Position numbers and translations under genes: made by a program. The notes below the pieces were generated by a model, which ran no database searches, was not told the origin of the DNA, and worked only from the letters and a program-made list of their open reading frames with translations. This document shows, piece after piece, positions 21,197 through 64,000 of a stretch of 64,000 nucleotides of DNA (position 1 is the first letter of the stretch; each line of letters opens with the position of its first letter). The stretch comes from Picochlorum sp. SENEW3. Lineage: Eukaryota. The stretch lies in NCBI GenBank assembly GCA_034226945.1, contig CP120456.1, positions 1,116,001 through 1,180,000 on the forward strand, read 5' to 3'.

Positions 21197-21243
21197 TGTA
21201 ACAGTACGAGGGTTGTACTGTTATGGCGCACCCGTGGAGGAGT

Positions 21244-21750: not shown

Positions 21751-21929
21751 GGACAGCGACACGCGGTAGTCTGGCATAAGAAATTCAAACATAAAACAGT
21801 ACAGACTACATAGTGGTGTCCAGTACATTTCGAGTTGTTGTACTACTATACTAGAAACATATTTGTTGTCCCTCGCATTCTTGTTGCTGAAGAGAAACAA
21901 ACACGGGTCCGGAAGGTGAAGAAAGCAAA

Positions 21930-24900: not shown

Positions 24901-26616
24901 TGGCAGCCTTGCTCCACTGGAAGCATTATTTGTACATGGAATCTCCGGTGATTTACACTGATCATAGACCTTTGGTTCACCTGAGAAAGCAGAAAGATTT
25001 GAACCCTCGACAGATTCGATGGATGGAGAAGATAGCAGCATTCAATGCAGACATACGGTATGTTCAAGGCCGGGCAAATGTCCTTGCCGACTTGCTCAGC
25101 CGCCTCCTGTGCGCCTCTTTGTTGCATCGGAGTTGCAACATGATGCCCCCAGGGTGGAGGAAATCAAGCGAATGTACGAAAAGGACAAATTCATTGGCTC
25201 GCTGAAGAAACATCTTCACAGCAAATTGCCAGTACCAGCGGTGTTTAACGCGCTCAAGGTGGAAAAAGTAGTGGAAAAGGATGGACTGTTGTACTATGAA
25301 CATCCTGAGAAATCTCGCCTGAGGCTCATTGTCCCTGACGACAAGAGCTGAAGTGGGACTTGTGCAAACATCACCACGATGCGGTGTGTGCTGCCCATCC
25401 AGGCCGAGACAAAATGTATCAGCAGATGAAGCGATATTACTACTGGCCAGATATGTTCTCGGATATTGCAGACTATGTGCGCCAATGTCGCGTGTGCCAA
25501 GTGGTGAAAGACCAGAGCAAAAGACACCAAGGATTGCTCAAGCCGTTACCAGTGCCTCGTGGGCCTTGGGAGGACATCAGCATGGACTTCATCGTGGAGC
25601 TTCCAAGCACTGCGAGGAAAAATACGGTGGCTCTGGTGTTTGTGGACAGATTCACAAAGATGATGCATGTGGCACCGACGTCCACTCCTTGTGACGCCGA
25701 AAAGACGGCCCGACTGTTCATTCACCATGTGTTCAGATACCACGGTATGCCAAAGCGAATCGTGTCAGACCGAGACTCGCGATTCCTGAGTGCCTTTTGG
25801 CAAGAACTAATGAGTCGATTGGGATGTCAGACACTCATGTCCACTGCATATCATCCCCAGACAGATGGTCAGACCGAACGTTCCAACAGGATTCTGGAAG
25901 AAATGATTCGATGCTATTGCGACGAATTCACGAATACTTGGGATGATGAGCTGGATGTCCTGGAGTTTGCGTACAATAATTCGTATCAGAGCAGTATCAA
26001 GAGTACGCCGTTTTATGTGAACCAGGGCAGACACCCTGCGTTGCCCACCACCGTAGCTCTTGGGCTGGAGGATGACACTACTGCGACAAATGCCAGCCAA
26101 CTCATACAGAATATGGCATCTGCCAGGTATGCTGCGAAACATTATATGGAAGTTGCTCAAACAAGACAAGCCAAGTACGCCAATACGAAGAGAAAAGCTC
26201 TGCCACTCAAGGTTGGAGATGAAGTGCTTTTGGCTACGAACAGGCTCAAGATGAATGGAGAGAGTTTCAAGAAGTTACAACCGCGTTGGATAGGACCTTT
26301 TGTGGTGACAAAAGTGATTAACAGTAATGCAGTCAGGATAAACTCTGACCAGATGGGTCACAAATTCCACCCCGTCATCAACGTGGAACGGCTCAAACCA
26401 TATCATTCAGGAATGGACGTACAGAAACTCGACGACGAGTTATCTCAACAAATGTCAGAAATTGCTGTTGAGCATATAAACGAAGAAGAAGAAAAAGAAG
26501 GAAATGTGCCTGAGACCAGTATGGACGCACAGTCCAAAGACTCTCAGCAGCCTGACCAGCTCATATCACCAGAAGAGGACGAAGATGACCTCGTGATCGA
26601 GCTGGATGATTATTAG
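21930..26616 (+). pseudogene. gag-pol of copy 1
   Basis: Motifs CVVCGEKYTPGHFC, LMDSGA, YLDDILIFS, TDAS...HDREFLA and integrase HHCC / D-D-E / GPF. Private lesions relative to copy 2: TAG at codon 5 (21942) and a 1-nt deletion at ~25348. Also carries the shared frame break at ~25105. Confidence 0.9.
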
Positions 26617-27053
26617 ATAGATTGTTTGATGTGGGAAGGTTTTCAAGGGGAGATACAACCCTTGGCTGAGTTGAAGAAACTACCTCAGCACCTGCAATGG
26701 TTTTTCCCTTCCAGCCACATGACAACTGAGGACAGTTGGTCCAAACTTAGCGGGAAGGACTGTAACAGTACGAGGGTTGTACTGTTATGGCGCACCCGTG
26801 GAGGAGTGTTCTAGAACCTTCTAGAACCCATGACGTGACAGTGTTCATGAAATGTATAAATACCATGCTCCAGCCCTAGGCTGGAGGACTTCAAATATAA
26901 CTATTTCTTACAGTGTAACGTCGGACCAATGGAGCAACTAGTATCATTATATGGGCCCCGCATGATATATTTGGGACGTCTACTTATTGTGTTGCAATGA
27001 GTACTCCCACGACGACGACACTTTTGAACAGGGAACACCTCGCCCCTGTTACA

Positions 27054-28922
27054 AATTTCCCGATGATGCTCATGATGACTGGCTTATGGTCTGATACTAT
27101 TCCGTAGCTGTGGATCTCTATCGTTTTGATAGGTTGTGTGATATATCTGGTCATGTCTGACGAGGCATAGAAGCGGTCCAGGCGGCTATGAATAGTTCCT
27201 TCCATGGTTCCATGGTGTTGTGTGTACATGTGTTTCTGTCTCAGTGTCTCCTGTTGGCATTCTGTGATCGAGTTCCCTACAGTTTCTTTCCAGTACCTGA
27301 TGAGGTATTGTTCTTGTTTGTTGTTGATTCTCTTTGTGGAGGTGGTATCCAGTGTCTGGTCTTCAACAAAATTCCAGTCTCCAGCATAAATGATTCCCTG
27401 TGTTCTCTGTGTATCTTTCTTGATGTGGTTGATCAGAGCCGTGCTGATCGTCCAGTGGTTGGAGGTGGAGGTGGTAGGCATATACACATTTCCTATTCTT
27501 AGTTTATGTCCCGACCAGTCCAGTGAAAGACTGATCATGCGGCCCATGCCTTTCCTTGTCACTGTGCTGGGGTGGAGGTGAATTGGTGCTCTGCCTTGCC
27601 GATAGGTTCGGATCCAAATTGCTGTACCTCGAGCTCTGCCGTGTTGGCGATCATTGTGCCAAAATGTTTTCCATTCTGCTTGTGTGTTTCTATCGAGTAG
27701 GTCTGTAAAGTTGTGTTCGTCTGTGTTTCCTTTGAGATGGGTTTCCTGTATCAGGGCAATATCAATCCTGTGATCTTCTAACAGCTTCATCATGGCACTG
27801 TATTTGTTTGGGGTCAAGCCTCTTACGTTGAATGTCATGAAGTTCAAGCCGTTCATCATCATGGATAATGATTTACTTGCGGATGGCATGCGCCTTCTTC
27901 TGAGGCGATGCCGTTGGTGAGGGGCCTGTGGCTAGCTTCTTTTTTGGTGAGCCTTGCTGCTCCCTCTTTTTGGTCGAGGCTCTTGTGATCCTCCTCTGGC
28001 TCTCCTCCCCTATCAGGTCCTGCAGATTGTTGTGTGCTTCTTCAGAGTTGTCCAGGCCTGAGTTGTCCAGGCCTGCGTCGCTGTGTTGCTCGCCACAGTG
28101 CGTGTCTCTGCAGACACCACATCCTCTGAGTCCTCTGTGTTGCCGGCTTCCCTTGGTCCCTCTTCCCTCTGTGTCATAAGCTTCATTCGTTCCATCCTGT
28201 TGGTTGGCGGCGGTGTGCTGTGGGTCGACAAGGTTGTCGTGTTCTTCGGTGTTGGGTGCCTCCTGTTGGTCCTCCTCCATCTGTTGTGCTGGCTGGGGTG
28301 CTGATGTGTCCTGTGTTTCTGTGTGTGCTTCTTGTGTCTGGTTTACTTGGGCTGCGAATTCCTCGCTTGTGATGTTCACGAAATCGTCGGTTTGGATTTC
28401 GTTGTTCTCCACCATGGCGGCATACTGTACTTCTCTCACTGGGTAGTTGGCCAGGGTTGGTACTGTGTCCAATGAGACATGTGGGCGGCGGGGTCTGAGT
28501 ACCTGCCACTCCAGTGCAGGTCCTGTTGGGCCCACTGGGATGGTGCCATTCTGTCCTGGCCTGTTGTCCTTGTAGGTGATGAGCCATTCTGTTGCATGGA
28601 GGTATTCTGGCATTTCTCCGGCGTTCCTCGTATGGCTGCGAGGTGCGCATGTCATTATCTCCGCTTCTTTCGAGATGTTACCTTTGTTTGCCAAGTGTTG
28701 CATGATACTTCCCAAGAACTGTTGAAGCAGCTCCGGGTGTCGAGTTGGGACACCCCGTAAGATGGCTTGTTGCGTCTGTGTCTGAGTTTCATACTGTACA
28801 GTCACCGGGAACTGTTTGTCTTCATGTTCAAAGAACATCCAGGACCCGTCATTGACGATTTTTCCGAAATGTGGCTGAAATTCCCGCAGCACCCACATAT
28901 TCCAGAAAATCCTCAGTGTCTT
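27054..28922 (-). mobile_element. Inverted middle segment of LINE-A (ORF1 C-terminus + APE endonuclease of ORF2)
   Basis: APE motifs TFNVRGL, LIQETH, AGDWN, SRLDRF and SDHKPV in ORF 26984-27889. Confidence 0.9.
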
Positions 28923-29359
28923 TGTAACAGGGGCGAGGTGTTCCCTGTTCAAAAGTGTCGTCGTCGTGGGAGTACTCATTGCAACACAATGAGTAAGCGT
29001 CCCAAATATATCATGCGGGGCCCATATAATGATACTAGTTGCTCCATTGGTCCGACGTTACACTGTAAGAAATAGTTATATTTGAAGTCCCCCAGCCTAG
29101 GGCTGGAGCATGGTATTTATACATTTCATGAACACTGTCACGTCATGGGTTCTAGAAGGTTCTAGAACACTCCTCCACGGGTGCGCCATAACAGTACAAC
29201 CCTCGTACTGTTACAGTCCTCCCCGCTAAGTTTGAACCAACTGTCCTCAGTTGTCATGTGGATGGAAGGGAAAAACCATTGCAGGTGCTGAGGTAGTTTC
29301 TTCAACTCAGCCAAGGGTTGTATCTCCCCTTGAAAACCTTCCCACATCAAACAATCTAT

Positions 29360-30890
29360 CTAATAATCATCCAGCTCGATCATGAGGTCATCTTCGTCCT
29401 CTTCTGGTGATATGAGCTGGTCAGGCTGCTGAGAGTCTTTGGACTGTGCGTCCATACTGGTCTCAGGCACATTTCCTTCTTTTTCTTCTTCTTCTTTTGT
29501 TATTTCCTTCCTATGCTCAACAATAATTTCTGACATTTGTTGAGATAACTCGTCGTCGAGTTTCTGTACGTCCATTCCTGAATGATATGGTTTGAGCCGT
29601 TCCACGTTGATGACGGGGTGGAATTTGTGACCCATCTGGTCAGAGTTTATCCTGACTGCATTACTGTTAATCACTTTTGTTACCACAAAAGGTCCTATCC
29701 AACGCGGTTGTAACTTCTTGAAACTCTCTCCATTCATCTTGAGCCTGTTCGTAGCCAAAAGCACTTCATCTCCAACCTTGAGGGGCAGAGATTTTCTCTT
29801 CGTATTGGCGTACTTGGCTTGTCTTGCTTGAGCAACTTCCATATAATGTTTTGCAGCATACCTGGCAGATGCCATATTCTGTATGAGTTGGCTGGCATTT
29901 GTTGCAGTAGTGTCATTCTCCAGCCCAAGAGCGATAGTGGTGGGCAAGGCAGGGTGTCTGCCCTGATTCACATAAAACGGCGTACTCTTGATACTGCTCT
30001 GATACGAATTATTGTACGCAAACTCCAGGACATTCAGCTCTTCATCCCAAGTATTTGTGAATTCGTCGCAATAGCATCGAATCATTTCTTCCAGAATCCT
30101 GTTGGAACGTTCAGTCTGACCATCTGTCTGGGGGTGATATGCAGTGGACATGAGTGTCTGACATCCCAATCGACTCATTAGTTCTTGCCAAAAGGCACTC
30201 AGGAATCGCGAGTCTCGGTCTGACACGATTCGCTTTGGCATGCCGTGGTATCTGAACACATGGTGAATGAACAGTCGGGCCGTCTTCTCGGCGTCACAAG
30301 GAGTGGACGTCGGTGCCACATGCATCATCTTTGTGAATCTGTCCACAAACACCAGAGCCACCGTATTTTTCCTCGCAGTGCTTGGAAGCTCCACGATGAA
30401 GTCCATGCTGATGTCCTCCCAAGGCCCACGAGGCACTGGCAACGGCTTGAGCAATCCTTGGTGTCTTTTGTTCTGGTCTTTCACCACTTGGCACACGCGA
30501 CATTGGCGCACATAGTCTGCAATATCCGAGAACATATCTGGCCAGTAGTAATATCGCTTCATCTGCTGATACATTTTGTCTCGGCCTGGATGGGCAGCAC
30601 ACACCGCATCGTGGTGATGTTTGCACAAGTCCCACTTCAAGCTCTTGTCGTCAGGGACAATGAGCCTCAGGCGAGATTTCTCAGGATGTTCATAGTACAA
30701 CAGTCCATCCTTTTCCACTACTTTTTCCACCTTGAGCGCGTTAAACACCGCTGGTACTGGCAATTTGCTGTGAAGATGTTTCTTCAGCGAGCCAATGAAT
30801 TTGTCCTTTTCGTACATTCGCTTGATTTCCTCCACCCTGGGGGCATCATGTTGCAACTCCGATGCAACAAAGAGGCGCACAGGAGGCGGC
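29360..30890 (-). CDS. Integrase, in a different frame from RT-RH
   Basis: Motifs HHH..AHPG..YYWP..CRVC, SMDF, VSDRD, DGQTERSN and WIGPF. Confidence 0.88.
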
Positions 30891-33800
30891 TGAGCAAGTC
30901 GGCAAGGACATTTGCCCGGCCTTGAACATACCGTATGTCTGCATTGAATGCTGCTATCTTCTCCATCCATCGAATCTGTCGAGGGTTCAAATCTTTCTGC
31001 TTTCTCAGGTGAACCAAAGGTCTATGATCAGTGTAAATCACCGGAGATTCCATGTACAAATAATGCTTCCAGTGGAGCAAGGCTGCCACAAGTGCCAAGA
31101 ACTCTCGGTCATGCACGGGATAGTTCTGTTCAGCAGGCTTCAATTTCCTCGAGAAGAAGGCAACGGGATGATACACATCCTCGTGCTTTTGCATCAGCAC
31201 GGCTCCTATGGCCACGTTCGAAGCGTCCGTGAACACATAGTACTCCTTTGTGGGGTCGGCCAATTTCAAGACAGGAGATGTGGTGAGCACTGCCTTCAAC
31301 CTATCAAAGCTTGTCTGATGCATGGAGTTCCACACAAAAGGCACATTCTCCTTGGTAAGATCAAAAAGTGGCGCAGCAATCTTGGCAAAATCTTTGACGA
31401 ATCTTCTATAGAATCCAGCGGCTCCCAGGAACGACCTGACGTGCGTCTTGGTCTCTGGTACAGGGAACTCGAGGATCTTCGATACCAGACCTGCATCCGC
31501 GCATACGCCATCCGAAGAGATTTCATACCCTAAAAACGTTATCCTTTGCTGAAAGAAACTGCACTTGGACAGATTCAAATATGCCCTGTGCTGTGTCAAT
31601 GTGTCCAGCACCATCTGCACATGCTTTTTGTGCTCTTCTTCTGTCTTGCTGAAAATCAGGATGTCATCCAGGTACACAATCACAAAAGTATCCAAATAGG
31701 GCGCCAATATGGAGTTCATCCATGCCTGGAACGTCGCCGGCGCGTTGGTCAGTCCAAAGGGCATGACCAAGAATTCAAAAGAGCCATAGCGGGTGCGGAA
31801 GGCGGTCTTGGGCCTGTCCTCCGGCGCAATGGGGATCTGATGGTATCCCGAGGTCATGTCCAACGACGTGAAATATTTTGCGCCTCGAAGCTGGTCCAGC
31901 AAATCGTCAGCCCTGGGAATGGGGTACCTGTTCTTGACCGTCTGATCATTCAACGCTCTGTAGTCCACGCAGAGTCTGAGCTTTCCATTCTTCTTCTTGG
32001 AAAACAGCACCGGTGCGCCGTATGGCGACACACTCGGCTGAATAAATTTCTTCTCCAACAATTCATCCAACTGAACCTTCAATTCTTCAAGCAACTTGGG
32101 AGCCATGCGGCGGAGAGGCTCGGCCACAGGTGTAGAACCTGGCAACAAGTCAATCTTGTGCATCACGCCACCTGGTCTCTCGACATTTTCTGGAGGCAAG
32201 CCATCCACGAACAAGTCCTTGTATTTTTCATGTATTTTCTCAATAAAGTTCTCGTGTTCTTTTCCTTCCGTCGTGCCCACGGTGCAAACACGAAGGCTGT
32301 CTGGCTTCCTGCGCTGGAAAGGCACAATCATGCCAAAGAGCTCGTCATCCCCCGCCGTCTTCATCGCTCGAGCCATCGTCTTGTACGACATCAAGGTGCT
32401 CGAGGAGGTGGGAGACTGCAAGACTCTTCCTTGTTTCTGGAGGTACACGCTGTTGGTCTTGTAACACAAGCCTGCCTGGTTGGCAGACAACCAGGGCTGA
32501 CCAAGCAACACGTCGTACTCATTGTCCAGCGGCGCAACCTTCAGCCTCACTTCCGACACGATCTGCGGAGCGTCCTCCTGCTTGATGACCAACCGTCCCC
32601 GATATTCTGTGTGGGACGCCTTCGTTGAGCCACCCGCCATCGTTATACTCATCGGCGCCATTCTCTGTTCTGGCAAGCCATGAGTTCGGATGAAGCTTTC
32701 AGAGATAAAGTCATCCTGAGCCCCTGAGTCCATGAGAATTCTGACCCTCTTCTTTTTTATGGACCCTTCAAAACTGAACGTCAGCCCTTTTTCTTTGTCT
32801 GGGACGTTCGTGCCAGGATGAGTCTTGCCAACGTGCTGCAGCATCTCCTTCGGCAACTGGGTCTCTTCGCACGCGTGATCCATCTGAGGATTCGTGACAC
32901 CGGAGGGGGGCCTTTTCTCTTCCTCCGCGGCCGACTCATCTTTATTTGGCGGGAGGATTATGGAGCTGCCCGTTCTGGACGGTGGTACCTGGACCGTCGA
33001 GCAAGCTCTCGTCGATATACTGTTTACCGCTGCCTTGCGTGGCGGGCACCTGCACGGCTGCGTGATGAACTGTCGACAGCGCATGCAGTACCGCGGGCAG
33101 AAGTGCCCCGGCGTATACTTCTCGCCGCACACCACACAAGGGCGATCCTTCCTGAAGCCCTTTTTATCCTTCCTGCTGTTGAACTGCTTCTGCTGTTGAT
33201 ATGTGTCACCTTGGGCTTTCCCAGCCACATAATTGACCGACACAGAACCAGAGGCAGCCAACGTCGAGCTCCATTGCACAAGATATGTGGTCAACCCAGA
33301 AAACATAGGCAGTACGCCCGAAGAGCCATACACTCCATGTATGGTGGGATAGTCGAGCAAGTACTTCTGTGCCTGGGCTTTGTAGTTGGGAGCCAAATTT
33401 TCCACAAACATCTTGACTCGCATTTCGTCGCACATGGGTACTCCAGAGATTTCCAATGCATCCACCAGCTGCTTGAACTGAGCAATGAATTCTAGGATTG
33501 ACAGTTTTCCTTGTTCCAACCCTGCCACCCTGTCCAACAGAGACGACTTGGATCCGTGACCAGTGAATGCCGTGAAAAGGCGTTCCACAAAGCTACTCCA
33601 AGACTGAAATGGTGCCTTGGCGTGCTCTGCATCGTACCACTTGGCAGCATCACCGTCCAACAACGAGGGCAATGAGCCGATCCAGGAGTCTCTGCTAGAA
33701 TCATTTCCATGCGCAGCTTTCAAGTACATTTCTGCCGAGGACAGCCAGGTGGTAATCGAGGATACGTCACACGACCCTCGATACAAGGGCACTTCCTTCT

Positions 33801-34059
33801 GGGCCTTCTTGTATCCTTCCACCTGCGTCTTGGGCTTTGCCGTCTCCCGAGCAATCCTTTTCAGCGCTTCCGCCAGCGCGTCCACCGGAACATCACCAGC
33901 TTCCGGATCCGTCTGAGACGTTATTTGTTCCAAGCGAGCTTCCAGTTCAGCGACTTTTGCTCGCAAGGTACGGTTTTGCGACCTGAAGTCTCTTTCCGTC
34001 CTTTCTTCGCCATCAGTGCTTCCACTTGAGAATGCTGGGTTGTCGTATGCTTCAGACAT
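30784..34059 (-). CDS. Gag-protease-RT-RNaseH polyprotein
   Basis: 1091-aa ORF from an ATG, with Zn knuckle, DSGA, YLDD and RNaseH ending NVLADLLSR. Confidence 0.9.
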   Translation of the reverse strand: MSEAYDNPAFSSGSTDGEERTERDFRSQNRTLRAKVAELEARLEQITSQTDPEAGDVPVDALAEALKRIARETAKPKTQVEGYKKAQKEVPLYRGSCDVSSITTWLSSAEMYLKAAHGNDSSRDSWIGSLPSLLDGDAAKWYDAEHAKAPFQSWSSFVERLFTAFTGHGSKSSLLDRVAGLEQGKLSILEFIAQFKQLVDALEISGVPMCDEMRVKMFVENLAPNYKAQAQKYLLDYPTIHGVYGSSGVLPMFSGLTTYLVQWSSTLAASGSVSVNYVAGKAQGDTYQQQKQFNSRKDKKGFRKDRPCVVCGEKYTPGHFCPRYCMRCRQFITQPCRCPPRKAAVNSISTRACSTVQVPPSRTGSSIILPPNKDESAAEEEKRPPSGVTNPQMDHACEETQLPKEMLQHVGKTHPGTNVPDKEKGLTFSFEGSIKKKRVRILMDSGAQDDFISESFIRTHGLPEQRMAPMSITMAGGSTKASHTEYRGRLVIKQEDAPQIVSEVRLKVAPLDNEYDVLLGQPWLSANQAGLCYKTNSVYLQKQGRVLQSPTSSSTLMSYKTMARAMKTAGDDELFGMIVPFQRRKPDSLRVCTVGTTEGKEHENFIEKIHEKYKDLFVDGLPPENVERPGGVMHKIDLLPGSTPVAEPLRRMAPKLLEELKVQLDELLEKKFIQPSVSPYGAPVLFSKKKNGKLRLCVDYRALNDQTVKNRYPIPRADDLLDQLRGAKYFTSLDMTSGYHQIPIAPEDRPKTAFRTRYGSFEFLVMPFGLTNAPATFQAWMNSILAPYLDTFVIVYLDDILIFSKTEEEHKKHVQMVLDTLTQHRAYLNLSKCSFFQQRITFLGYEISSDGVCADAGLVSKILEFPVPETKTHVRSFLGAAGFYRRFVKDFAKIAAPLFDLTKENVPFVWNSMHQTSFDRLKAVLTTSPVLKLADPTKEYYVFTDASNVAIGAVLMQKHEDVYHPVAFFSRKLKPAEQNYPVHDREFLALVAALLHWKHYLYMESPVIYTDHRPLVHLRKQKDLNPRQIRWMEKIAAFNADIRYVQGRANVLADLLSRLLCASLLHRSCNMMPPGWRKSSECTKRTNSLAR

Positions 34060-34794
34060 TTTGCTTGCTTCACCTTTCGGACCCGTGTTTGTTTCTCTTC
34101 AGCAACAAGAATGCAAGGGACAACAAATATATGTTTCTAGTATAGTAGTACAACAACTCGAAATGTACTGGACACCACTATGTAGTCTGTACTGTTTTAT
34201 GTTTGAATTTCTTATGCCAGACTACCGCGTGTCGCTGTCCTTTTATAGAAATTCCCAATCCTCTCTGGCTTCTAGAACCTTCTAGAAGACGCGTTTCTAG
34301 AAGCTTCCGAACCGCGTTCGCGTGGACGTCTCCTGGCCAAGGTCTGTACCACACGCGTTCCCAACTGTGCAGCAGTCCCATACCTGCTGGAAGAGGTAGT
34401 AAACTGAATTCCTATAATTTCGAGCGAACCACACGAGCCCTTCAAGCCACGTCTTGCTTGAAACGACGCCGTGTGCTTCGTGTCGGAGTCTGAAACCACT
34501 GTAACAGGGGCGAGGTGTTCCCTGTTCAAAAGTGTCGTCGTCGTGGGAGTACTCATTGCAACACAATGAGTAAGCGTCCCAAATATATCATGCGGGGCCC
34601 ATATAATGATACTAGTTGTTCCATTGGTCCGACGTTACACTATAAGAAAAATAGTAATATTTGAAGTCCCCCAGCCTAGGGCTGGAGCATGGTATTTATA
34701 CATTTCATGAACACTGTCACGTCATGGGTTCTAGAAGGTTCTAGAACACTCCTCCACGGGTGCGCCATAACAGTACAACCCTCGTACTGTTACA

Positions 34795-43465: not shown

Positions 43466-45744
43466 CATACCTCGGCGTTATACGCACTTTTCTCCCTCTA
43501 TAGTGTATTATACTGTATACAATAAATATATTATTAATCCTTGTTGCATTTTACATCGTTTGATATAAGTTTGAGGCAATATGATGCAGTATACGCGGAG
43601 AACGAAGCGAATGTTTCCAGGGCGATTCTGCATCCACGGTCCAGACATGCTTTTGATAGGTGTAGAAGGGAAAAGGAGAATCCGACGGTTGGTTACATGC
43701 GCAGAATCGTCACCACGTCGTCCACAATAATTTATTTTCCTTCATAATTCTCACGTGTAATTTATCACGTATAATAATAACTATAACCAGATGTAGGGCT
43801 GGTAGAACTCCTGCGCGATTCCGCAGAAGTCACCAACGAACATCGGGCGGTTACTCGCACGATGAACGAGTATATCGGTGCGTTGGCATGGTTGGGCAAT
43901 CATTTGTGCTATTTATATTGTTTTAAGGCATTTCTGATGTGCAGAACGGATTCAGAAGAGGGAATGCGAGGGCACCGATGAACCAACCGTCTCTGACGAT
44001 CAGGGTGTACTTTATGACCAGAATTTTCAATGATCTGGCATAGATCACCACATAATCGAATGAGAGCTATTATTTAATCCATTCAGACGCATGTATCTCC
44101 CCCTGAATCATGCCCAGAGAAATTCTGGTTTGAGCAGGGTGGTTCCTCCACGAATCAGGTTCACTGCCCTCGTAGGCTTCAGCCTTTTCGGGAATACGCT
44201 TTTGATGTTGATAATATATGCATAAATCATCATTTGAATGGATGATCCTGCTCTCAATACACGGATTGAAGGAGTGCATCATGGCTCTGGGATGGAAGTG
44301 ATGCAATGTCCATTGGAGACGTTCCTGTAGAGCTGGCATTACATGATATTGCTAAATTTTTTGAGTATTCAGCGTCTTTAAGAGCCAATGTCGACGTATG
44401 GGCGAGTCTGTTGCCTGGAGATTTTGTAACACAGTGTGCAACGATTTCCAGAAAGGAATGCATCAAATCAGTGCTGGAATGCAGAGCTCTACCGAACACC
44501 AGGCACGAGAAACTACCACTAATACACCAAAAATAAAAATTCGAGTCAAGAAACAGAAAATGCTGTGTCAAATATAGGTCCTAGAAACTTCATCCAGACG
44601 TCAACTGGAATACAGTTAGAAGAGAGAATTCATGTGATCATGAGTGTGGATTCAGATTAATCATGAGTGTGGATTGTTAGAAAGTTGCATGGAAGAAATC
44701 CCCAGAGTCTTCATGCCGCAAACCATGTCAGAATGATACTTTTGAAGCTATAATCGAATGGACAGGTCTAGATGTCTCGCAGCTTCGGCTGAGTTTGCCT
44801 GAGTTACTCTGATGGCAAAATACTTGCCATTGATGCCAAAACAGCGATTCTTTGGTCATGAAACATACCCATTTGCGCTTCATTTTGACGATAATAAACG
44901 TATGCGAGGATATCAAGTTCATAAGCAAGGCAATGCGGCTGCACAGGAGATTTATGAGCTTCCGCATTCAAATGGACATGCAGCAAGTCAGCATGCATTA
45001 CCAAGGTGCTTCCAGCAATCAAAAATATCTGCGCTGATCACTCTCATATATATATCGAATACATTGCAGGGCGATCGTCGTTTCTGGATCGTGAAACTCG
45101 ACTGTCCTATTTGCTACAAATACTTTGTCAATGGGTTGGTGGGTGCCCAAGCAGATGAATTCATCCTGCAGATTTCGGTCCCACAGCGATCTCAGAAGTA
45201 GCATTATTGCATAGTACAGGATACGATAGAGGCAATTCGAGAAAAGAATGGATCACAATTGTCAATTATTTCTTGGACATGCAACAGGTTAGCCATCATC
45301 TTTTAAATGAGCCTGGATATGAGGACAATTTGAATTAAATCACTCCTAAATGGTGCAACGGTCAAGGGATGTAATAAATCTTCGTATTTTCTTTCCCTAG
45401 AGGACAAATTGGCAACAACATCACTAATTTTGGTGGAGCTATAATACAAGCATTCACACTCTCAATCTTCGGCACAGTTATCTTGCACTATCCCAAGCCA
45501 TTAGAAGTCTGTCCTCTTTACAACTGACTTTGTCCTTTCTTCGACATTTATAAATCGTTCCAGCCCTGTTTGGGCATGAAAAAATGTTCGACACGTCCTC
45601 ACACAATTGGTGACTCCATGAAGAAAGCTGCTTTCTTCATCACTGCATCCTCAGTCGTCCTGCTTGAAGATTATTATAAATGAATATTGAGATCATTGAA
45701 ATGTAATAATAGCGCAAGCGGTATAGAAAAGGCTAAAGATAGCG

Positions 45745-46629
45745 ATGGTTGACTCACAGCAACAACGAAACGAGCCAACATGCAATCAGCTGTTGCTTCT
45801 CCTAGACAACTGGAAAGTGCATACAACCGCAGAGTTTAAAAGCGCAGTGGAAGAGAAATTCAAAGGGAAAGTGAAACTAAGATTCCTGCCTCCAAACATG
45901 ACACACAAGCTTCAGCCTCTTGATGTGTCTATCAATTCAGCTCTCAAGACCAAAACTGAAGCGGTGTACAGCTTTGAATATGGCAAGAAGATTGCAGATT
46001 TGATATCAAAGAGCGCACAGGACGATAGACTGGCTGAACAGATTGTGCAGATCGAAAAGAGCACAAAACCCAAGGTGAAAAGAGAGGATGCCATTGACTG
46101 CACCTATAAAGCATGGCAGCAGATCGAGACAAGTCTAGTCCAGAAAGCTTGGCTCGATTGCACTATATTAGATGCTTGGGATATTGAAGTTCAAGAAGAA
46201 GCCCTGAGATTGTTTGAGAATGGCCTTCTTCTCCCGATGGACCCAGAGACAAACAGAGTCAATGTCTTCCCGGATGCTGTGCCTTGTGAAGCACCACTCC
46301 AAGTGCTTGAGGACAAAGATACAACAAGCGAAAATGAAATCGAATATTCTATACGTGATACAGACGACGAGAGCCACAATGAAGAGCCATCAGAAGGAGA
46401 CCATGCCCATCCAATCATCCCAGGGGAAGGAGGTCTGGAACAAGATCAAGCAATCGATCATAACCACGTCTATCTTTGGACGTCTACAGCATCTAAGGGA
46501 TTTATTTACATCTATTGTAATCTATTGCACATTGTTTCCACCTCAGATCGGCCAGAAATCCAATTTTGGCACTCGAAAACTTTGCAGGACAAGAAAAGGA
46601 GGGAATTTCCTGAAATCACGAAGAGTTAG
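45745..46629 (+). pseudogene. pogo/Tc1-mariner DDE_1-type transposase, C-terminal part
   Basis: Motifs LLLLDNWKVH and FLPPNMTHKLQPLDVSINSALK. No N-terminal HTH or first Asp is visible in frame. Confidence 0.75.
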
Positions 46630-46922
46630 CGGCGGTACAGTATTATTATGATTGTAGTGTGTCGTTAGTTTGTCTTTGTCTTTTCCATTTTCTTATTTCT
46701 TTTCACGGAGCCCTGGGTTGTAAGTAGGAAGGAAGATCACCTACTTAATATATCTAATTAAGACCTGATAATAGATTTAAGTAGAATAATATATGTGGAT
46801 CTTCATGGATACGTTCAGATGATAAGAGATGCTCTAGATCTCTAGGATGGACCCGTGGGAGATCCGAGGGGGTCCATCACATTCCTCCCCCCTCAGCAAA
46901 AACCAAGGGTTTTGCGACAAGA

Positions 46923-49900
46923 TTAAACGTTGTAGTAGTACTGAGGGAAAGACGGGTGACGAGACTGTGGTGGCCAGAAATTGTGAAAGACGAAGATCTT
47001 ATGCCAATCGGCCTCAGTAAAACTAGTAACTGGCCTCCAGTCGTGAACCTTATCAAGCTCCTTATGCTGAAATTTGACCAAGTAGTGGGGTGTACCATAC
47101 TCGTCCTCTTTCACATCCACAATTTCTTCTACAACAAGAGGCTCCAACGAGGACGTCACAGTAGGTTCTACAAAGTCCTGAGACTGAACATGTTTCTTAA
47201 GCTTGGAAACATGGTAGTACGCCGTTTGGTTGCTCTTCCTATGAGGAATATCCAGCTTGTACGCTGTGTCTCCGATACGATCAATAATAGAGAATGGACC
47301 TTCATACTTTGGTGCAAGGGACCCATTTTTCTGCACTTTAGCATCAGAAATCTTGACGAATACGAGATCTCCAATGTTGAAGGAAAGAGGTCTATGATGT
47401 TGATTATAATACTTAGCTTGCTTTGCCTGTGCCTTGCTGAGGTGATTCTTGGCGAAATCCACGAGGTACGAAATCTTGTGGTCAGTCGTCATAAGCGAAG
47501 ATGAAGACGTGGGCTTGTTAAGAAAATCTGGCATGTGCCAATCCTCTCCAAAAACTAACCTGTTTGGGGAACAACCTGTGGATGCCTGCACCGAACTATT
47601 ATAAGCCATCTGTAAGGTGGGTAACGCTAAATGCCAATCCTGCGATCTGTGTTCCAACAAATATGAACGAAGCATCTGTTTGATTGTGCCATTGACGTTT
47701 TCAACCTGACCATTGGTTTGAGGATGTTCAACCGTAGCCAGCCTGTGCTCAATGCCAACAGTCTTCATGTAAGCTCTGAAAAATTGGCCTGTAAAAGCCG
47801 ACCCCCTGTCGGTGATAATCACATCAGGATGCCCAAAAAGATTGAAGAAATGGTGCCGCAGTAACTCTAAGGTTTCGGGGCCACCCACATGGACGTCACA
47901 AGGGATGAAGACAGCAAATTTAGTCAACCTGTCAACAACAACCAAAATGCCATTGGAACCCAATGAGGTTCTACGAAATGGGCCTACAAAATCCATGTGA
48001 ATGATGCCAAAACGCCGATTAGGGATTTCCAGCGACTGTAACAATCCTGCAGGAGCTTGCCGAGAGTGCTTGGAACAAGCACAGACTGGACATGCTGAGA
48101 TGTAGCGACGCAGCTGATTATACATCCCAGGCCAATAGTATTTAATTTTAGCTTCTGATAGCATTTATCTATACCCATGTGCGCGCCCTGGTGCTCATTA
48201 TTATGGTAGTAGTGAAGCAATTTACCTCGCAACATGTCTGGGACATACAAACATGATGGTGGGCCATTGTCGCGCTGAGCCAATGGCCAATGGTAGATAA
48301 CACCATCACGGACCACCAATTCTTTCGGAATAGGAAGTGTAGTTGACTTTGAATGTAAGAGAGCCTGAGCAATTGCATCCGAGGCATACGCAGCTTGTAC
48401 CTGAGATATCCAAGTGTCCCCTGCCAAGGTGAGTTGAACCGCTGCATACACAAAAGGGATAGACTCCTCTCTAAGGTGGCGCTTAAGCAATACTCGATTA
48501 ATGTCTGCAGGGTGATGCTCTTGAAAGATGGCTAAGGAAGACCAAGGGCATACGGAGGGAGGGCCCTCCAAGTGGACTGCAGCAACCACCAGCTCATGAT
48601 CTGGGCGCCTGCTTAAGCCGTCAGCAACAATATTTGTTTCACCTTTCTGATACTCTATTGACAGTTCTGGGCCCCATTCAAGCAATTCACACATCCACCT
48701 GACATGCCTTGATGACTGAGAAACGGCAATACTTTGCTGGAACTTGTGGACTAATGGACGATGATCAGTCCTGATCACGACCTTTTCACCAAAAATCAAA
48801 GGCTTCCACTTGTCCAGAGCTGCCATGATGGCAAGCCATTCACGATCAAAGGTACTATAATTTCGCTGAGCTTGGTTAAGCGAAACGCTCATATAAGAGA
48901 TTGGAAATAATGCATCGGTATGGTACTGCTGTAAGACTGCCCCAACAGCGATGAGACTGGCATCCGTATTGATATAGAAAGGTTGATCTGGAATGGGCAA
49001 CCTCAAGAGGGGAGGCTTGCTCAGTAACTGCTTTAACCCTTCAAACGCTGACTGATGCTGGGCGGTCCACTGAAATGTGACTTTGGAACTGGTGAGTTGA
49101 TTGAGCGGAGCAGCCAACGCCGCAAAATTCGCAATGTACTGGCGATAATAATTGCACAACCCAAGAAATTGGCGGACATGCTTCGTGTTGGCAGGCACTG
49201 GCCACGCTTGGATGGCATCAAGCTTGACTTGCACTGGTTGCAATCCATGCTTGGAAAGGCGACTCCCTAAAAATTGGACTTCTTCTTGGAAAAAATGACA
49301 TTTTTCAGGCGCGATGCGATAGTCCTCTTTTGCTAGAGCGGCAAACAGGCGCTCCAGAATAGACTCATGCTCCTCATGAGTGCAAGTGCCGACAATGATG
49401 TCATCGAGATACACCGCAGCATGATCTCGGAGATCATAGCGACGCAGCAAATCCGAAGTAAGGCGCTGCATAATGCTCGGTGCATTGCATAATCCAAAAG
49501 GCATGACACGCCATTGATATAAACCCTCATGGGTAATGAATGCTGTCAGGTGGCAATGGTCAGGATTTACCAAAACCTGATGATACGCCGACTTCAGGTC
49601 GATCACACTAAATATGGATTTGCCTCCAAACTGTGCTATCAGGTCATCCGTATGAGGAATAGGAAATCTGTTAGGTATTGTGACAGCATTCAAGCATTTG
49701 AAATCAAAGACTAACCGATCCTTACGGTTTGGTTCATGAACGATAAAAGCTGGAGAAGCCCAGGCTGATTGTGAATACTCTATAAACCCAAGCTTGAGAA
49801 GCTTGTCGACTTCCTGTCGAATCTTTGTTCGGTCCTTGGGGCCACAACGACGCGCTTTCTGAGACGAAGGAGAAGCCCCCGGCACTAATTGTATGTCGCA

Positions 49901-50424
49901 ATTAATAGAGCGCTGTGGGGGCAACCCTGACGGTGGCTCAAAAACGCATGAGTACTTCAAGATGCAAGGAGGAATGTGGCTCATGTGTGAAGAAGCCATA
50001 ACTTGCCTGCCAATAGGATAGATGGAGGTGGAAAACCACTGCTCCTGATACTCAAAACGAAGTTCATGTGTACCATGGTTGATGATGGCCTGGTGATCCT
50101 CAAACCACGGCACTCCGAGAGTAACATCTGCCACTTGGGGCATGACAACGAATGCCAGGACAGCTGAGTATTCCTGAATTGCGATGCGCAACTGAATGAC
50201 TTCAGACAAAGAGGCTGAATGGGCAACCCCTGACGCCAATGTGACCGACAATGGCTGACGCAAACGCTGCGTAGGTAAAGAATGTCTGGTAACCAAGGCC
50301 TGGTCGATAACGTTGGCCGAGCACGCCGTGTCGAGCAATATGTGCACCGGAATTGTCGATGACTGGGCATCATATAGGGTGCCCACGGCGATCGGTGGAA
50401 ACCCGACTGTGACGGAGGCCAACT
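46923..50424 (-). CDS. Pol exon: protease-RT-RNaseH-integrase-chromodomain, with one frameshift at ~48150
   Basis: Motifs LLDTAC, YLDDIIV, NTDAS, MDF / TDRG / GQVE, YEGPF and chromodomain VEEIVD..HYLVKF. Confidence 0.9.
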
Positions 50425-50616
50425 CTGCATAGAAATGTGAAGGACATCAGGAGGTTACAGAACACTACCCGAATTAAGAAAGAGAGAAAGCCAAAACCGG
50501 GATGCATGCCGATTCAATGCCGAATTGACGAGACAATAGTGGAAACTAGGGAGGTCATGACCCTTGTTGGACGCAGCAAGGGTGCAAGCAGTTGCTTTCA
50601 TCAACCTCGTTTGTGA

Positions 50617-50870
50617 TTCTTGGGGTGACCACTGGTGGACGCAGCAGTGGTGCGATAGACGCTTCACCAGCCAAGGCAATTTCATGCTTATAACCACTGG
50701 AGGACACAACAGTGGGGCGAGAAGTAGCTCTGTATGATTCTTGGGGTGACCACTGATGGACACAGCAGTGGTGCGATGAACGCTTCACCAACCAAGGCAA
50801 TATGGTTCTTGGGATGACCACTGATGGACACAGCAGCGGGCGACGGACGCATTCATCAACCAAGGCAATA
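50617..50870. repeat. Three ~63-bp direct repeats in the gag-pol spacer
   Basis: TCTTGGGGTGACCACTG..GGAC.CAGCAG..CCAAGGCAAT at ~50617, ~50738 and ~50807. Confidence 0.8.
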
Positions 50871-50986
50871 TCATGGGGGTAGATTACCAAACGGTGGACA
50901 CACCATTGATACGAGCAATTGGAACTGCTCAACCCGAAAATATCTAAAGAGGGGACGTTACCCAGAAAAGACCGAAAATGTAAGAA

Positions 50987-51772
50987 TTACTCACCGTCAT
51001 ATTTGAACGAAGGGGCTTGTAGCCCTGCCTCTGGCTGCATAGTCTGAGCTGCATGCGTAACTGGAGGCCGCCTCCAGCGCGGGTCTTGTCTGCGCTGACG
51101 ATCCGACCCGTTATTGCGCTTGAACTGAGGAGGCGCATAGGAATGCTTCAACTGCTGCACCTGTGTGCGAATATCCTGCGTCGAGGTAATGGACTCAATA
51201 TCAAGCTTCTTACGCAGCGGATTCGGCAAACTCTTGGCCATAGCTAAGGCAATAAACGCGTGGCTGTTGGCATGAAACCATGACAAAAAGGCTGGGTTAT
51301 TGGCAAGAGCGTGCATGTCATCGAGAGTGCTAAGCACTCGCTCAACAGCAGCCGTATTAGGCAAAACAGGCAAGTTCCAAAAGCATAACTGAGGCAACGT
51401 TTCCGCCACTGGAGGAAACAGTTTCTGCAAGGTTGCGGTAAAGTCGTCTAGACTCATCTGTAGGTACACGTCGACGGGTTTCAATTCCAAACGCATACAG
51501 AATTGCTGAATAATTTCGTCATCAGCCAATTGAAAACGATTTCGCATAACCTTAACCTGGGTCTCGACAAAAGCTTCCACCGAGGAAAAACTCTCCAAGG
51601 AAGGCATAACCTGGTAGTAGCCTCCACCCAGTTGAGAAACCATAGATGACCCCGCCGCATTCACACTGGCCGATCCGGATCCCATTAAGGCCTGTGGAGT
51701 AGATTGAGGATCTGAGGGCGTCTCAGGGCGAGCCCGCTTAGTGGACGCGCGAGTGCTGCGACGAGGCGGCAT
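50987..51772 (-). CDS. Gag (261 aa unspliced); probable first exon of spliced gag-pol
   Basis: First ORF after the 5' LTR/PBS. The stop lies immediately inside a GTGAGT splice donor. Confidence 0.75.
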   Translation of the reverse strand: MPPRRSTRASTKRARPETPSDPQSTPQALMGSGSASVNAAGSSMVSQLGGGYYQVMPSLESFSSVEAFVETQVKVMRNRFQLADDEIIQQFCMRLELKPVDVYLQMSLDDFTATLQKLFPPVAETLPQLCFWNLPVLPNTAAVERVLSTLDDMHALANNPAFLSWFHANSHAFIALAMAKSLPNPLRKKLDIESITSTQDIRTQVQQLKHSYAPPQFKRNNGSDRQRRQDPRWRRPPVTHAAQTMQPEAGLQAPSFKYDGE

Positions 51773-52068
51773 AGCTTGCAGAATTTCTGTCGGGGAAATT
51801 CGATTCTGTCAGCTCCACCAATGTAAGTAGGAAGGAAGATCACCTACTTAATATATCTAATTAAGACCTGATAATAGATTTAAGTAGAATAATATATGTG
51901 GATCTTCATGGATACGTTCAGATGATAAGAGATGCTCTAGATCTCTAGGATGGACCCGTGGGAGATCCGAGGGGGTCCATCACATGGGTACGTACCCACG
52001 GGGGTATACCCCACTTGATCAAGAGGCGACCTGGTCAGGGGGCATTGATGTAAAATCATACAATACAA

Positions 52069-54286
52069 TACACTGTGCACATAAAAATGACTACAATTGT
52101 AATATAAGCTTATCGAGACTGCGAGGGGTACGAAGCCCGCCACGCTGCGTTCGCGAGCGTCGATTTAACGAAAAATTCACGTAAATTCAGATGCCCGAAT
52201 TTTTGTGGTGCCCTATTAACGCCGTTGAAGCGCTATAGAAATACAAATATATATGATACATAAGATGGTATATCTTCTTGCCCATGAATACTGCCCAGGG
52301 CTACAGGAGTTGGCCAAATTTGGGCGTCATTAACGGTCGAGTGTCCGTGCGCACCTGTGGTTGGTATCTGGGCCACAGTATTGGCTCTCAATTAATCTAT
52401 TGTGGTTTGATATTCCATAAGAAATGGATTGCAAGATTCTATGTCGACGCCTGACGGGTATCAGAGGCAGCTCAGGGGAGCACATAGTGCCACACTTGGT
52501 CTCCCATCACAGGCTGATTTTGACCGAGAATATTATAACTCGTGTGATGTTTTCGGAACGGTCAAACATCCAGTGTGATGGGATGCTGTTCTTCACGGAT
52601 AGAGAGTATCCAACTGTCCGTTCAAATTGGCATTTTAATAGGTGACATTCGTCGATTCATGACACCTGAGTTTGGGCCAAGGGTGTCATTGCTCAAGGCT
52701 AACTGCACCATATTTCATCGCCCAGGGGGGGACATATTCTACAACAATCTGCCATGTTTTGGTGCATATCTGCTCCTGAATGCCATCTATCGTGACACTC
52801 CCACGCGCAAATGTCATAATGACCAGATGCTGCAATGCTCATGCAGCCAAGTCATCTCTCAAATGGAACAGTTACAGCCAACACTTCAATGCCAAGCATC
52901 ATGGAAACATATACAGTCGCGATAAGCGGGTGATATCCGTGAGCAGTACGATTTTCTGCGGATTGTATGCAAGTGCTGATGGTCCTGAGGCCATCCACAC
53001 CGCAGCCTATTTCCAATGAAGGTGGGCGTCAGTATCTCCGTCAGTTCCTGCGGTACGAATGTATCGAAACCGTATCATGAACTTGTTGATCTCTAGAGTA
53101 TGCCTTCGGACTTCTGTCGGTCCATAACAAGCTCGTTTGTGCCACTGTCCGCTCAAATGCTTGCATGTCACCATATTGCTTTCTTATGGCTCTCAGTGCG
53201 GTGCTGTTGTGGCCATGATGCGCGATGCATTAGCCCAAAGCTCATATGTACATGGAATTGTGAACGTGACGATTGATGGCCAATATAGCTGCTCATTATT
53301 GGCACAGAGGCAACAATACAAACCTCATAGCAGTAGAATCAATGTGGTTCTCTCGAGCTGTGACGTTTGATCATGAAGATCAAGCATGCCATCGAGATTG
53401 GTGTGTGTTCTGATTCTAGACAGAATCAATGTAGGTGCAGCGCTTCAGCGGGGTTGATGTTGAATATGAAAGCAGTTACATTGCAAGCCTTTCCCTCCTA
53501 CTGAAGAGATATATGTACCAGTTTGCAGATGGGGGATGTGACAGCGTACATTTCCAGTCGTGGCCTGGATTTCCTTCGCAGGGTACACAATATACTGCCT
53601 TGTCACTCTCGTGTCGTTGCCAACACAGAGCGTTCAACCTTCACACGCAATGAGGTTCGATAGAAGATGGGGTAGAGCACCAACCAATGTACAGAAGATT
53701 ATCTCTTCTTTCACAGGATAGTTTGAATTAGAGGTTGCCACATGAGGTTCAAATCTTCTCAGTATATTGAAATGACCATGATGACTAGATTTCTCCTAGG
53801 GATCTCATTTCCCTAGATGTTTACAAGAGATCTCCTCCCACAGGGACGTAGCTCTCTGCTACAGGGGATGTGATTCCAAGAGATGGAGACGCAGGTCTGC
53901 TTAGCCGATTCACGGTTTTGGGAGATTTGTATCGATATCAGGCAATGAGAAACCGCAAATAGAGCTTTGATGGCGTGTCGACAACTGCATTTGTGCAATG
54001 CCAGGTGATCCAGTGATCAGTCTATACTGCTGTAGTGCAAAGGATTTTCTAGGATCATGTGAATTAGAACGGATGTCAAAGAAACCCAGAACGCTTGGAA
54101 ATCCATACAAAGGACCATACAAGGTTTCAGTCTCACCACAGAATTGTCAGTACATGCATGTTCCCAGCCCATGGGGCTTGGCCAAACCTGGCCTACTGAA
54201 AGGGCGGTCCATCCGCCCTTTCCATCCAAACATCACTATGTCGATTGAAGTGTCATGAGACTCACGTCAATAAGGGGCCCGCGAGA
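52069..54286. repeat. 2.2-kb dispersed repeat, copy 2 (inverted relative to 18480-20696)
   Basis: Reverse-complement similarity over the whole length. Confidence 0.85.
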
Positions 54287-62804: not shown

Positions 62805-64000
62805 GCTGAAGTGGGCCACCCTGGTGGTGAGTGTCAGGGGGCTTGTGGGGCGTGTTTGGGGGTGTCAAAGACAATGTCCAGTCCTGCGCTCTTTTGTGTG
62901 GCTGTATTTATATAATATCAATGTATGTGCAAAGCGAGAGGAGTGGAAATTGTCTCTGGCATGGTCATTTGTCGGGGTGAAGTGGTAAAGCTGGTTGTCA
63001 CTATGACCAAGCTTGTGGGGCGTGTTTGGTGGTGTCAAAGACAATGTCCAGTCCTGCGCGTTTTTTTGTAGATGTATTTATATAATATCAATGTATGTGC
63101 AAAGCGAGAAGAGTGGACATTGTCTCTGGCATGGTCATTTGTCGGGGTGAAGTGGTAAAGCTGGTTGTCACTATGACCAAGCTTGTGGGGCGTGTTTGGT
63201 GGTGTCAAAGACAATGTCCAGTCCTGCGCTCTTTTGTGTGGCTGTATTTATATAATATCAATGTATGAGCAAAGCGAGAAGAGTGGACATTGTCTCTGGC
63301 TTGGTCATTCGGCGTGTTGAAGTGGTGACACTGGTGGTGAGTATGAGTGAGTTTGTGGGGCGTGTTTGGCGGTGTCAAAGACAATGTCCAGTCCTGCGCC
63401 TTTTTGTGTGGATTTATTTATATAATATCAATGTATGAGCAAAGCGAGAAGAGTGGACATTGTCTCTGGCATGGTCATTCGGCGTGTTGAAGTGGTGACA
63501 CTGGTGGTGAGTGTCAGCGACCTTATAGCGCGTGTTTGGTGGTGTCAGAGACAATGTCCAGTCCTGCGCGTTTTTTTGTAGATGTATTTATATAATATCA
63601 ATGTATGAGCAAAGCGAGAAGAGTGGACATTGTCTCTGGCATGGTCATTCGGCGTGTTGAAGTGGTGACACTGGTGGTGAGTGTCAGCGACCTTATAGCG
63701 CGTGTTTGGTGGTGTCAGAGACAATGTCCAGTCCTGCGCGTGTTTGTGTAGACGTATTTATAGTATAGTAATATATGTGCAAAGCCAGAGGAGTGGACAT
63801 TGTCTCTGGCATGGTCATTCGGCGGGGTGAAGTGGTGACACTGGTGGTGAGTATCAGCGACCTTGTGGGGCGTGTTTGGTGGTGTCAAAGACAATGTCCA
63901 GTCCTGCGCGTTTTCGTGTAGATATATTTATATAATATCAATGTATGTGCAAAGCGAGAAGAGTGGACATTGTCTCTGGCATGGTCATTTGGCGGGGTGA
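62805..64000. repeat. 170-bp tandem satellite (at least 7 copies, runs off the window)
   Basis: Unit registers at 62842, 63011, 63181, 63351, 63521, 63691 and 63861. Confidence 0.95.

Follow-up and report, generated by a model that had tools for sequence, protein, structure and literature searches.

A candidate regulatory intron between gag and pol in a Ty3/gypsy retrotransposon of the green alga Picochlorum sp. SENEW3

The gag-pol spacer and its borders

The window analysed here, a 64,000-nucleotide (nt) stretch of contig CP120456.1 of Picochlorum sp. SENEW3, carries on its minus strand a 5,266-nt Ty3/gypsy long terminal repeat (LTR) retrotransposon (46719-51984). The host, a trebouxiophyte green alga, belongs to a genus with genomes of 13-15 Mb (PMC6141220, Table 1), and its introns are very short. 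In the sense direction of the element, a gag open reading frame (ORF) of 261 codons plus a TAA stop (50987..51772; open from stop to stop over 50987-51808, with its ATG at 51772 and its stop at 50989-50987) is followed by a 570-nt non-coding spacer (50425..50994), and then by pol. The first part of pol (48150..50424) encodes the protease, reverse transcriptase, RNase H and the start of the integrase zinc finger (Pfam RVP_2, RVT_1, RT_RNaseH, Integrase_H2C2), while the second part (46923..48149) encodes the integrase, an SH3-like domain and a weak chromodomain-like tail up to the stop codon (Pfam rve, SH3_Tf2-1, Integrase_H2C2). The pol ORF itself spans 47984-50446, and a third frame (46923-48164) holds the remaining integrase. 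The spacer, which the initial annotation of this locus proposed to be removed by splicing for the production of Gag-Pol, is treated here as a candidate intron.

At 50994/50995 the minus strand reads ...TAT GAC G|GTGAGTAA, and the gag stop is thus placed inside a consensus donor, as the initial annotation had stated; the candidate 5′ splice site GTGAGT (50989..50994) overlies the end of the ORF (GGT GAG TAA). At the opposite border (50425/50424) the strand reads ...CCTGATGTCCTTCACATTTCTATGCAG|AGTTGGCC, and direct reading bears out a candidate 3′ splice site (50425..50450) with a branch-point-like CTGAT, a pyrimidine tract and CAG ahead of pol. The gag and pol ORFs share one frame (51808-50446 = 1362 = 3x454), and the spacer measures 570 nt (3x190) with phase 1 at both ends. 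The spacer starts past the first codon base, and joining the remaining G to AG restores GAG (E), giving the predicted in-frame junction FKYD-E-LASVTV claimed previously and confirmed by frame arithmetic. Read without splicing, the shared gag/pol frame meets six stops across the spacer. The pol frame opens at 50446, 22 nt ahead of the candidate acceptor CAG, and its first methionine is residue 102, whereas the protease DTA motif stands earlier, at residues 39-41; the earlier view that pol lacks an ATG of its own is therefore upheld.

Once the spacer is removed, the two ORFs turn into one continuous frame, and the ends of the spacer resemble the consensus expected for introns of the host (G|GTGAGT, CTGAT 25 nt ahead of the acceptor, 70% pyrimidines and CAG|). 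Both GTGAGT and GTGAG occur only once on the sense strand of the element, in each case at the gag stop; for GTGAG, Markov simulations predict 4.7 occurrences against the one seen (P(<=1) = 0.05). When 15 GT sites from the 300 nt at the 3′ end of gag were paired with nine AG sites lying at most 150 nt from the start of the pol ORF and scored by a simple consensus count, 14 pairs kept the frame open, among which the 50994/50425 pair scored best and supplied the best acceptor. The junction signals of the spacer are unlikely to have arisen by chance. A further sequence, GGTGAGTA at 5121-5128, was considered as an example of a host intron and rejected, as it sits within a continuous 318-codon ORF.

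The window was compared with contigs from four sequencing runs, of which X13 and X18 are RNA (X18 being an oligo-dT metatranscriptome), X16 is guessed to be RNA and X1 is of a kind not known. Contigs lose minor forms, and stretches that they leave uncovered (e.g. X18 50442-49355) were not used as evidence. Diverged copies of the element are found in X13, X16 and X18, and 40 of the 184 rows of differences between these and the window were counted. Twenty-five of the differences listed are coding, with 19 synonymous and six non-synonymous, and 21/25 fall at codon position 3. Given this bias, pol is an expressed gene under purifying selection. As a selected pol without a start codon lies behind 540 nt of stops, a route for its translation is needed.

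The spacer evolves differently. In the X16 copy, which is ~2.4% diverged, it carries a gap of 121 nt, equal to one step of the repeat, as well as three 1-nt indels, none of these lengths being a multiple of three, while no gag or pol indel is found among the listed copy differences apart from the window's own at 48149/48150. The repeat units within the spacer furthermore sit in different reading frames. Together with the six stops, these observations show the spacer (50425-50994) to be non-coding. Two skips in the contigs were rejected as introns and represent copy variants, namely the 121-nt gap of X16 and a joint in X18 (51014->51210; 195 nt), the sense-strand ends of which are not GT-AG.

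Three repeats of ~63 bp had been described in the spacer. Three copies are indeed present, spaced 68 and 121 nt apart, but the unit measures 68-76 nt. Folding and covariation analysis identified six stem-loops in these repeats (50560..50910, minus strand), each with 7+2 pairs and a loop core UG(U/C)GUCC. The exact hairpin motif is found four times in the window (0.02 expected), with all four occurrences in the spacer. In an alignment of the six paralogous rows, 90.7% of cells pair, compared with 28-61% in slid controls, and two pairs show compensatory changes (A-U to C-G; C-G to U-A or A-U). Covariation reaches a score of 0.311, against 0.154 in shuffles, with 3/500 shuffles reaching the observed value, and the spacer as a whole folds somewhat better than its shuffles (z = -2.47). 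There is hence moderate support, drawn from six paralogous rows, for the hairpin being a maintained structure. A search of the element against Rfam at E <= 1 gave no matches, and a scan for bacterial promoters and terminators, which is not applicable to a eukaryote, remained at chance level.

The spacer also harbors the sole TGTAA on the sense strand of the element (50455..50459), a candidate chlorophyte poly(A) signal located 34 nt ahead of the candidate 3′ splice site. An X18 contig aligns perfectly over 50443-50643 and is extended, on the sense strand past 50443, by eight untemplated A in place of the genomic C, T. This places a candidate cleavage and poly(A) site at 50443, with TGTAA starting at -17. 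UGUAA is described as peaking sharply at -17 in chlorophytes, trebouxiophytes included (PMC1868727). Simulations predict 3.8 TGTAA on the sense strand, where one is seen, and nine are present on the antisense strand; in a second gypsy family of the window, the sense strand is free of the motif. Taken together, the motif at -17 and the untemplated A tail of one contig make a poly(A) site in the spacer, 18 nt ahead of the acceptor and ending a short gag mRNA, probable. Such an mRNA would avoid a 4-kb 3′ untranslated region (UTR), in line with the argument made for EVADE (PMC5580714). The LTRs (46719-46881, 51822-51984) contain no TGTAA that could direct 3′-end formation of the full-length RNA.

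Integrity of the element, its relatives and the deposited gene models

The ends of the element were read directly from the sequence. The 5′ LTR (51822..51984) is 163 nt long, has TG...CA ends and is 100% identical to the 3′ LTR (46719..46881); a repeat call of 164 nt includes one chance base. The sense-strand target-site duplication ACCCA is found on both the 5′ (51985..51989) and 3′ (46714..46718) sides. A polypurine tract (46882..46894) directly precedes the 3′ LTR, while a primer-binding-site-like stretch that starts with TGG, one base past the 5′ LTR (51799..51820), is proposed from its position and sequence. A tRNA scan of the window identified no genes, so the candidate primer-binding site has no tRNA match there. 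The LTR pair with TG...CA ends and a short target duplication, as well as the order protease (PR), reverse transcriptase (RT), RNase H (RH) and integrase (IN) (Pfam RVP_2 31-127, RVT_1 241-396, RT_RNaseH 486-590, Integrase_H2C2 and rve), place the element with Ty3/gypsy (Metaviridae-like) retrotransposons. The match to a chromodomain at the integrase C-terminus is weak (Chromo; E = 0.005; 17.1 bits vs a cut-off of 25.1). A subfamily with a different LTR and the same primer-binding site is also carried by the RNA runs X13 and X18 (loose ends 51825, 46798).

Within pol, the reading frame is broken in the integrase zinc finger (48149..48150) by a change of one letter, which the initial annotation had not mentioned. 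The break is private to the window, as one more letter is present in 4/4 runs, including X1 with its share of 0.99, and represents either an assembly slip or a private mutation. A database protein (P0004) which is 99% identical to the first part of pol reads through the break as a continuous pol of 1154 amino acids (aa). Runs X16 and X18 furthermore show an empty site, where 46718 is joined to 52007 with 13 other letters between. The identical LTRs, intact target duplication and empty site support the insertion being polymorphic and recently active, as had been suggested from the first two of these features. A short-read contig of X1 covers 46853-51847 with zero mismatches, which rules out an assembly artefact as the origin of the spacer and also shows that, at the 31-mer level, other loci do not share it.

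The translated gag product belongs to no Pfam family, lacks a CCHC knuckle and ends in a basic, arginine-rich tail. Its AlphaFold model, built on a seven-row alignment, is all-helical and of low confidence (mean pLDDT 41.1; pTM 0.26). No gag relatives outside Picochlorum-type records are detectable in 5.8 billion clusters and 1.84 billion representatives, and longer relatives (479-2000 aa) were not found; among the 1.84 billion representatives, P0127 is a bacterial collagenase/TIG protein and was rejected as spurious, with P0124 the only other match. The relatives comprise a P. oklahomense MMETSP transcript, P. renovo gene models and NCBI records of Picochlorum sp. SENEW3. A YDGE-stop end, which is the donor read as codons, is shared by 7/11 database relatives, among them the 73%-identical P. 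oklahomense transcript peptide, while the preceding 40 residues are highly variable. DNA of these relatives is absent from the metagenome_contigs, genome_contigs and viral_contigs sets, and conservation of the donor was thus read from protein ends.

Outside the family, the nearest pol proteins share 35-41% identity and derive from metagenome chromoviruses (e.g. P0007) and Chara braunii. A total of 76 loci of pol relatives (L001-L076) were fetched, and the 54 which hold the start of pol were tabulated. The relatives resemble the Picochlorum element in their PR-RT-RH-IN order and SH3-like domain, but differ in having a full chromodomain (PF00385), where that of the Picochlorum element is weak. 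They also differ in that a CCHC knuckle ends all 15 gag ORFs inspected, which is absent from the Picochlorum gag. Comparison of these 15 gag ORFs with the element by tblastn gave a best E of 0.09, and the spacer is therefore no recognizable relic of the zinc-knuckle region of the relatives.

Two deposited models for Picochlorum sp. SENEW3, P0134 and P0135, produce a gag-pol fusion in which the outermost splice sites are the donor and acceptor proposed here. They do so by way of a 21-nt mini-exon (50904..50924, minus strand) which encodes VPIARIN, and which two RNA contigs, X13 record 15 and X18 record 31, traverse without splicing. Both models also jump the integrase frame break. Models of this type were made by MAKER2 with Augustus, as described in PMC11092101. 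P0134 and P0135 are frame-saving predictions and provide no evidence of RNA. For annotators, they exemplify a fusion of two ORFs that was achieved by inventing a mini-exon and skipping a frame break. In a diverged RNA variant, 11 nt of the donor (GTGAGTAATTC) are retained beside a stretch which cannot be aligned (loose ends 50946, 50984).

A proposed splice-based route to Gag-Pol and its alternatives

LTR elements and retroviruses must obtain Gag in abundance, Pol in small amounts and an intact genome from a single transcript. The usual solutions are frameshifting, readthrough, or a single ORF combined with degradation. We propose that 50425-50994 may instead act as a regulatory intron in an active chromovirus-like Ty3/gypsy element of a Picochlorum-type alga. 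Unspliced RNA would give Gag alone, since the stop sits 5 nt inside the predicted intron, and a fraction of this RNA would be cut and polyadenylated at 50443 to form a short gag-only mRNA. A minority would be spliced from the gag-stop donor to the CAG at 50425, yielding a continuous Gag-PR-RT-RH-IN frame and a small amount of Gag-Pol. The route of the gene models, with two introns around the 21-nt mini-exon, would also fuse gag to pol. The genome would be supplied by full-length RNA that has been neither spliced nor polyadenylated within the intron. The six hairpins, which would be found only on intron-containing RNA, are a candidate packaging signal, as the initial annotation had suggested for the repeats, possibly bound by Gag and confined to unspliced RNA, or may slow splicing or polyadenylation. 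Unspliced RNA had originally been assigned the roles of Gag mRNA and genome. This is retained in the present model with the amendment that the genomic RNA is probably accompanied by a short gag mRNA.

An Ogre-like design, in which splicing fuses the two ORFs and the intron holds a poly(A) site, is probable. We lean towards an in-frame gag-pol junction being present in RNA, while its use of exactly 50994/50425 is close to evenly balanced, with the scales tipped slightly to the other side. The most elaborate form of the proposal is a three-way switch that would have evolved after loss of the zinc knuckle and of a -1 frameshift, and in which splicing to Gag-Pol RNA, intronic polyadenylation to gag mRNA and read-through to the genome would compete and so set the Gag:Pol:genome ratio; in this complete form we consider it rather doubtful.

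Several observations weigh against splicing. The fusion of gag to pol as first proposed is supported by the anatomy of the locus, selection on pol, the YDGE ends and the gene models, but not by junction RNA. Neither the joint 50995->50424 nor any other GT-AG joint was found in the contigs of the four runs (0/4), and the donor is reached by just two RNA contigs, X13 record 15 (50866-51259) and X18 record 31 (50828-51254), both of which continue through it unspliced. The missing junction is a weak negative, as contigs lose rare forms and the model has unspliced RNA as its major species. An intron-less DNA copy, for which the initial annotation had suggested a search, was likewise not seen in the four runs. 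No natural fused gag-pol ORF was found among proteins of 479-2000 aa or in the 1.84 billion representatives; the sole fused proteins are the gene models, with their invented jump over the integrase frame break. The spacer is four to six times the mean intron length of the host, which is given as 88, 101 and 133 nt for three Picochlorum genomes (PMC6141220, Table 1), a comparison of means only. The pyrimidine tract ahead of CAG could serve the poly(A) site instead of an acceptor. The support for that site is a single contig of depth 7.4 and eight letters.

The relatives provide further points of this kind. The P. oklahomense peptide terminates at the stop inside the predicted intron, in an ORF which the source record labels as complete. 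Conservation of the donor, seen at the protein level in the seven YDGE-ending relatives, does not extend to the P. renovo gene models P0130 and P0131, which end in YDDSNI, or to P0126, which ends in YDRD, and the donor may thus not be universal. Among the 54 tabulated loci of pol relatives, gag mostly overlaps pol in the -1 frame (e.g. L001, L005, L012, L017, L038, L047, L058 and L060), while a single in-frame stop separates the two in L029, L031, L033 and L054, and one long gag-pol ORF is present in L025, L026, L030 and L040. The relatives with a continuous ORF, which were anticipated as a possible contradiction of splicing, therefore exist but are too distant to refute it. None of the 54 loci (0/54) has a long gag-pol spacer, and that of the Picochlorum family is therefore derived, possibly from an ancestor with an in-frame stop.

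The proposed arrangement has parallels in other systems. In retroviruses, the packaging signal lies downstream of the major 5′ splice site and is carried only by unspliced RNA, while foamy viruses translate Pol from a spliced RNA with its own AUG, not fused to Gag. The spacer resembles the retroviral layout in that structured RNA elements would be found on unspliced RNA only, although a packaging role for the hairpins is putative. In Ogre, a partly spliced intron is described as joining two ORFs (PMC6317226). Ogre (Ty3/gypsy, Tat lineage, legumes) and Bianca (Ty1/copia) share with the Picochlorum element two ORFs parted by a stop-rich non-coding stretch. Unlike in Ogre, the candidate Picochlorum intron, 570 nt long, is located at the gag|protease border, and an array of hairpins and a probable poly(A) site are found inside it; the lineage (chromovirus-like) and the host (a 13-Mb green alga) differ as well. 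Splicing has furthermore been demonstrated for Ogre, whereas the Picochlorum case is argued from sequence. For EVADE (EVD), other Arabidopsis Ty1/copia elements, BARE1 and Drosophila copia, splice signals and premature polyadenylation are reported to give a short Gag RNA (PMC5580714, PMC12786077). For EVD, it has been proposed that U1, positioned at the 5′ splice site, keeps intronic poly(A) sites repressed, and the short gag mRNA avoids a long 3′ UTR (PMC5580714). These elements are like the present model in placing a short RNA for Gag beside a full-length RNA, but the assignment is reversed: there, unspliced RNA gives Gag-Pol and spliced RNA gives Gag, whereas in the Picochlorum model unspliced RNA would give Gag and spliced RNA Gag-Pol. 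An algal LTR element with a gag-pol intron was not found in the portions of the literature covered, which is weak evidence of its absence from print.

The spacer might alternatively never be spliced and form the 3′ UTR or terminator of a gag mRNA, with pol produced by unconventional translation of read-through or internally started RNA. The A-tailed contig ending at 50443, with the sole TGTAA at -17, and the unspliced state of the RNA contigs which cross the donor speak for this explanation, and LINE-1 ORF2 is translated with no need for its AUG. Candidate routes include termination-reinitiation, internal entry on the hairpins, or initiation at ATG 50430 followed by a -1 slip at G_GGT_TTC (50404). 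For the last of these, the features lie within 50398..50430 on the minus strand: the ATG begins a 149-codon frame over the protease, and the canonical slippery heptamer (50404-50398) is in the right phase 26 nt past this ATG and upstream of the protease active site. The nearest pol clade also uses -1 frameshifting. The fold after the heptamer is, however, no better than its shuffles (z = -0.59), and the heptamer and overlapping frame could be due to chance, with an in-phase heptamer within 25 codons estimated at ~4%. Scanning or reinitiation would in addition be inefficient across the 12 mostly out-of-frame ATGs between 50994 and 50300, and no reason is offered for the position of the sole GTGAG, which overlies the gag stop and shares its phase with the best acceptor. 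We consider this explanation unlikely. The 157-codon open frame to which ATG 50430 belongs (minus strand, 49981-50454) runs +1 over the protease, with 149 codons from the ATG, and is probably a chance occurrence.

It is improbable that the spacer is an insertion, arising through repeat expansion, which has cut off pol, with Pol supplied in trans or the lineage recently dead and the splice-like ends fortuitous. The spliced form is unseen in the four runs, the window copy has an integrase frame break, distant relatives are without a spacer and gag lacks the CCHC knuckle present in 15/15 inspected gag ORFs of relatives, all of which would agree with such decay. A dead pol is nevertheless difficult to reconcile with the 19 synonymous vs six non-synonymous listed differences across pol and integrase, or with the continuous 1154-aa pol of P0004 and the absence of the frame break from 4/4 runs. 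The identical LTRs, intact target duplication and polymorphic insertion also argue against it. The spacer is moreover present in the 2.4%-diverged copy and, as suggested by the gag ends, in the 73% subfamily, and no other pol closer than 41% which could act in trans was found in a comparison that did not include the other gypsy family of the window. Removal of no more than the first of the two introns in the gene models (50994-50925; 70 nt), which would alter the Gag C-terminus without fusion and leave pol to be reached otherwise, fits the host mean intron length of 88-133 nt and the GAGCAG|TT acceptor picked by the gene finder, after which the frame stops ~14 codons on, but is very improbable given that both RNA contigs there are unspliced, the pyrimidine tract at the acceptor is weak and pol would still be without a translation route.

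Should splicing of the spacer take place as we propose, the element would be a green-algal case of ORF fusion by splicing, with the intron located exactly at the gag|protease border and containing both a poly(A) site and a repeated hairpin. A splice-based solution to the Gag/Pol problem would then have arisen more than once, and the three-way switch would represent retrovirus-like logic reached independently in a 13-Mb green alga. The element would offer a small (5.3 kb), young and polymorphic system in a compact genome, in which simple mutations could tell splicing, intronic polyadenylation and packaging apart. Some Picochlorum strains are transformable.

Genomic surroundings

The region from 8500 to 62333 of the window is unusually rich in mobile elements for a compact 13-Mb genome and may represent a repeat island such as a centromere region. 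It includes a KDZ transposase, a Helitron (Helitron_like_N and PIF1), several LINE-like ORFs (Exo_endo_phos and RVT_1), and hAT and pogo-like DDE_1 elements. The second Ty3/gypsy family is represented by two inverted copies (21191-27055 and 28921-34794) which are 97-99% alike and have LTRs of their own. Its gag, protease, reverse transcriptase and RNase H are encoded in one ORF of 1086-1104 codons with Pfam gag matches, while the offset of the integrase frame differs between the copies, with an indel near 25349/30639.

The retrotransposon with the candidate intron adjoins a DDE_1 ORF, with flanks at 45727-46718 and 51985-52300. In X1 and X16, the contig depth of these flanks is 2-10 times that of the element, and the insertion thus sits in another repeat. 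At the far end of the window, a 170-bp tandem repeat with 6.9 copies and 91% matches (62821-64000) continues past the window end and carries a GTGAGT in each unit.

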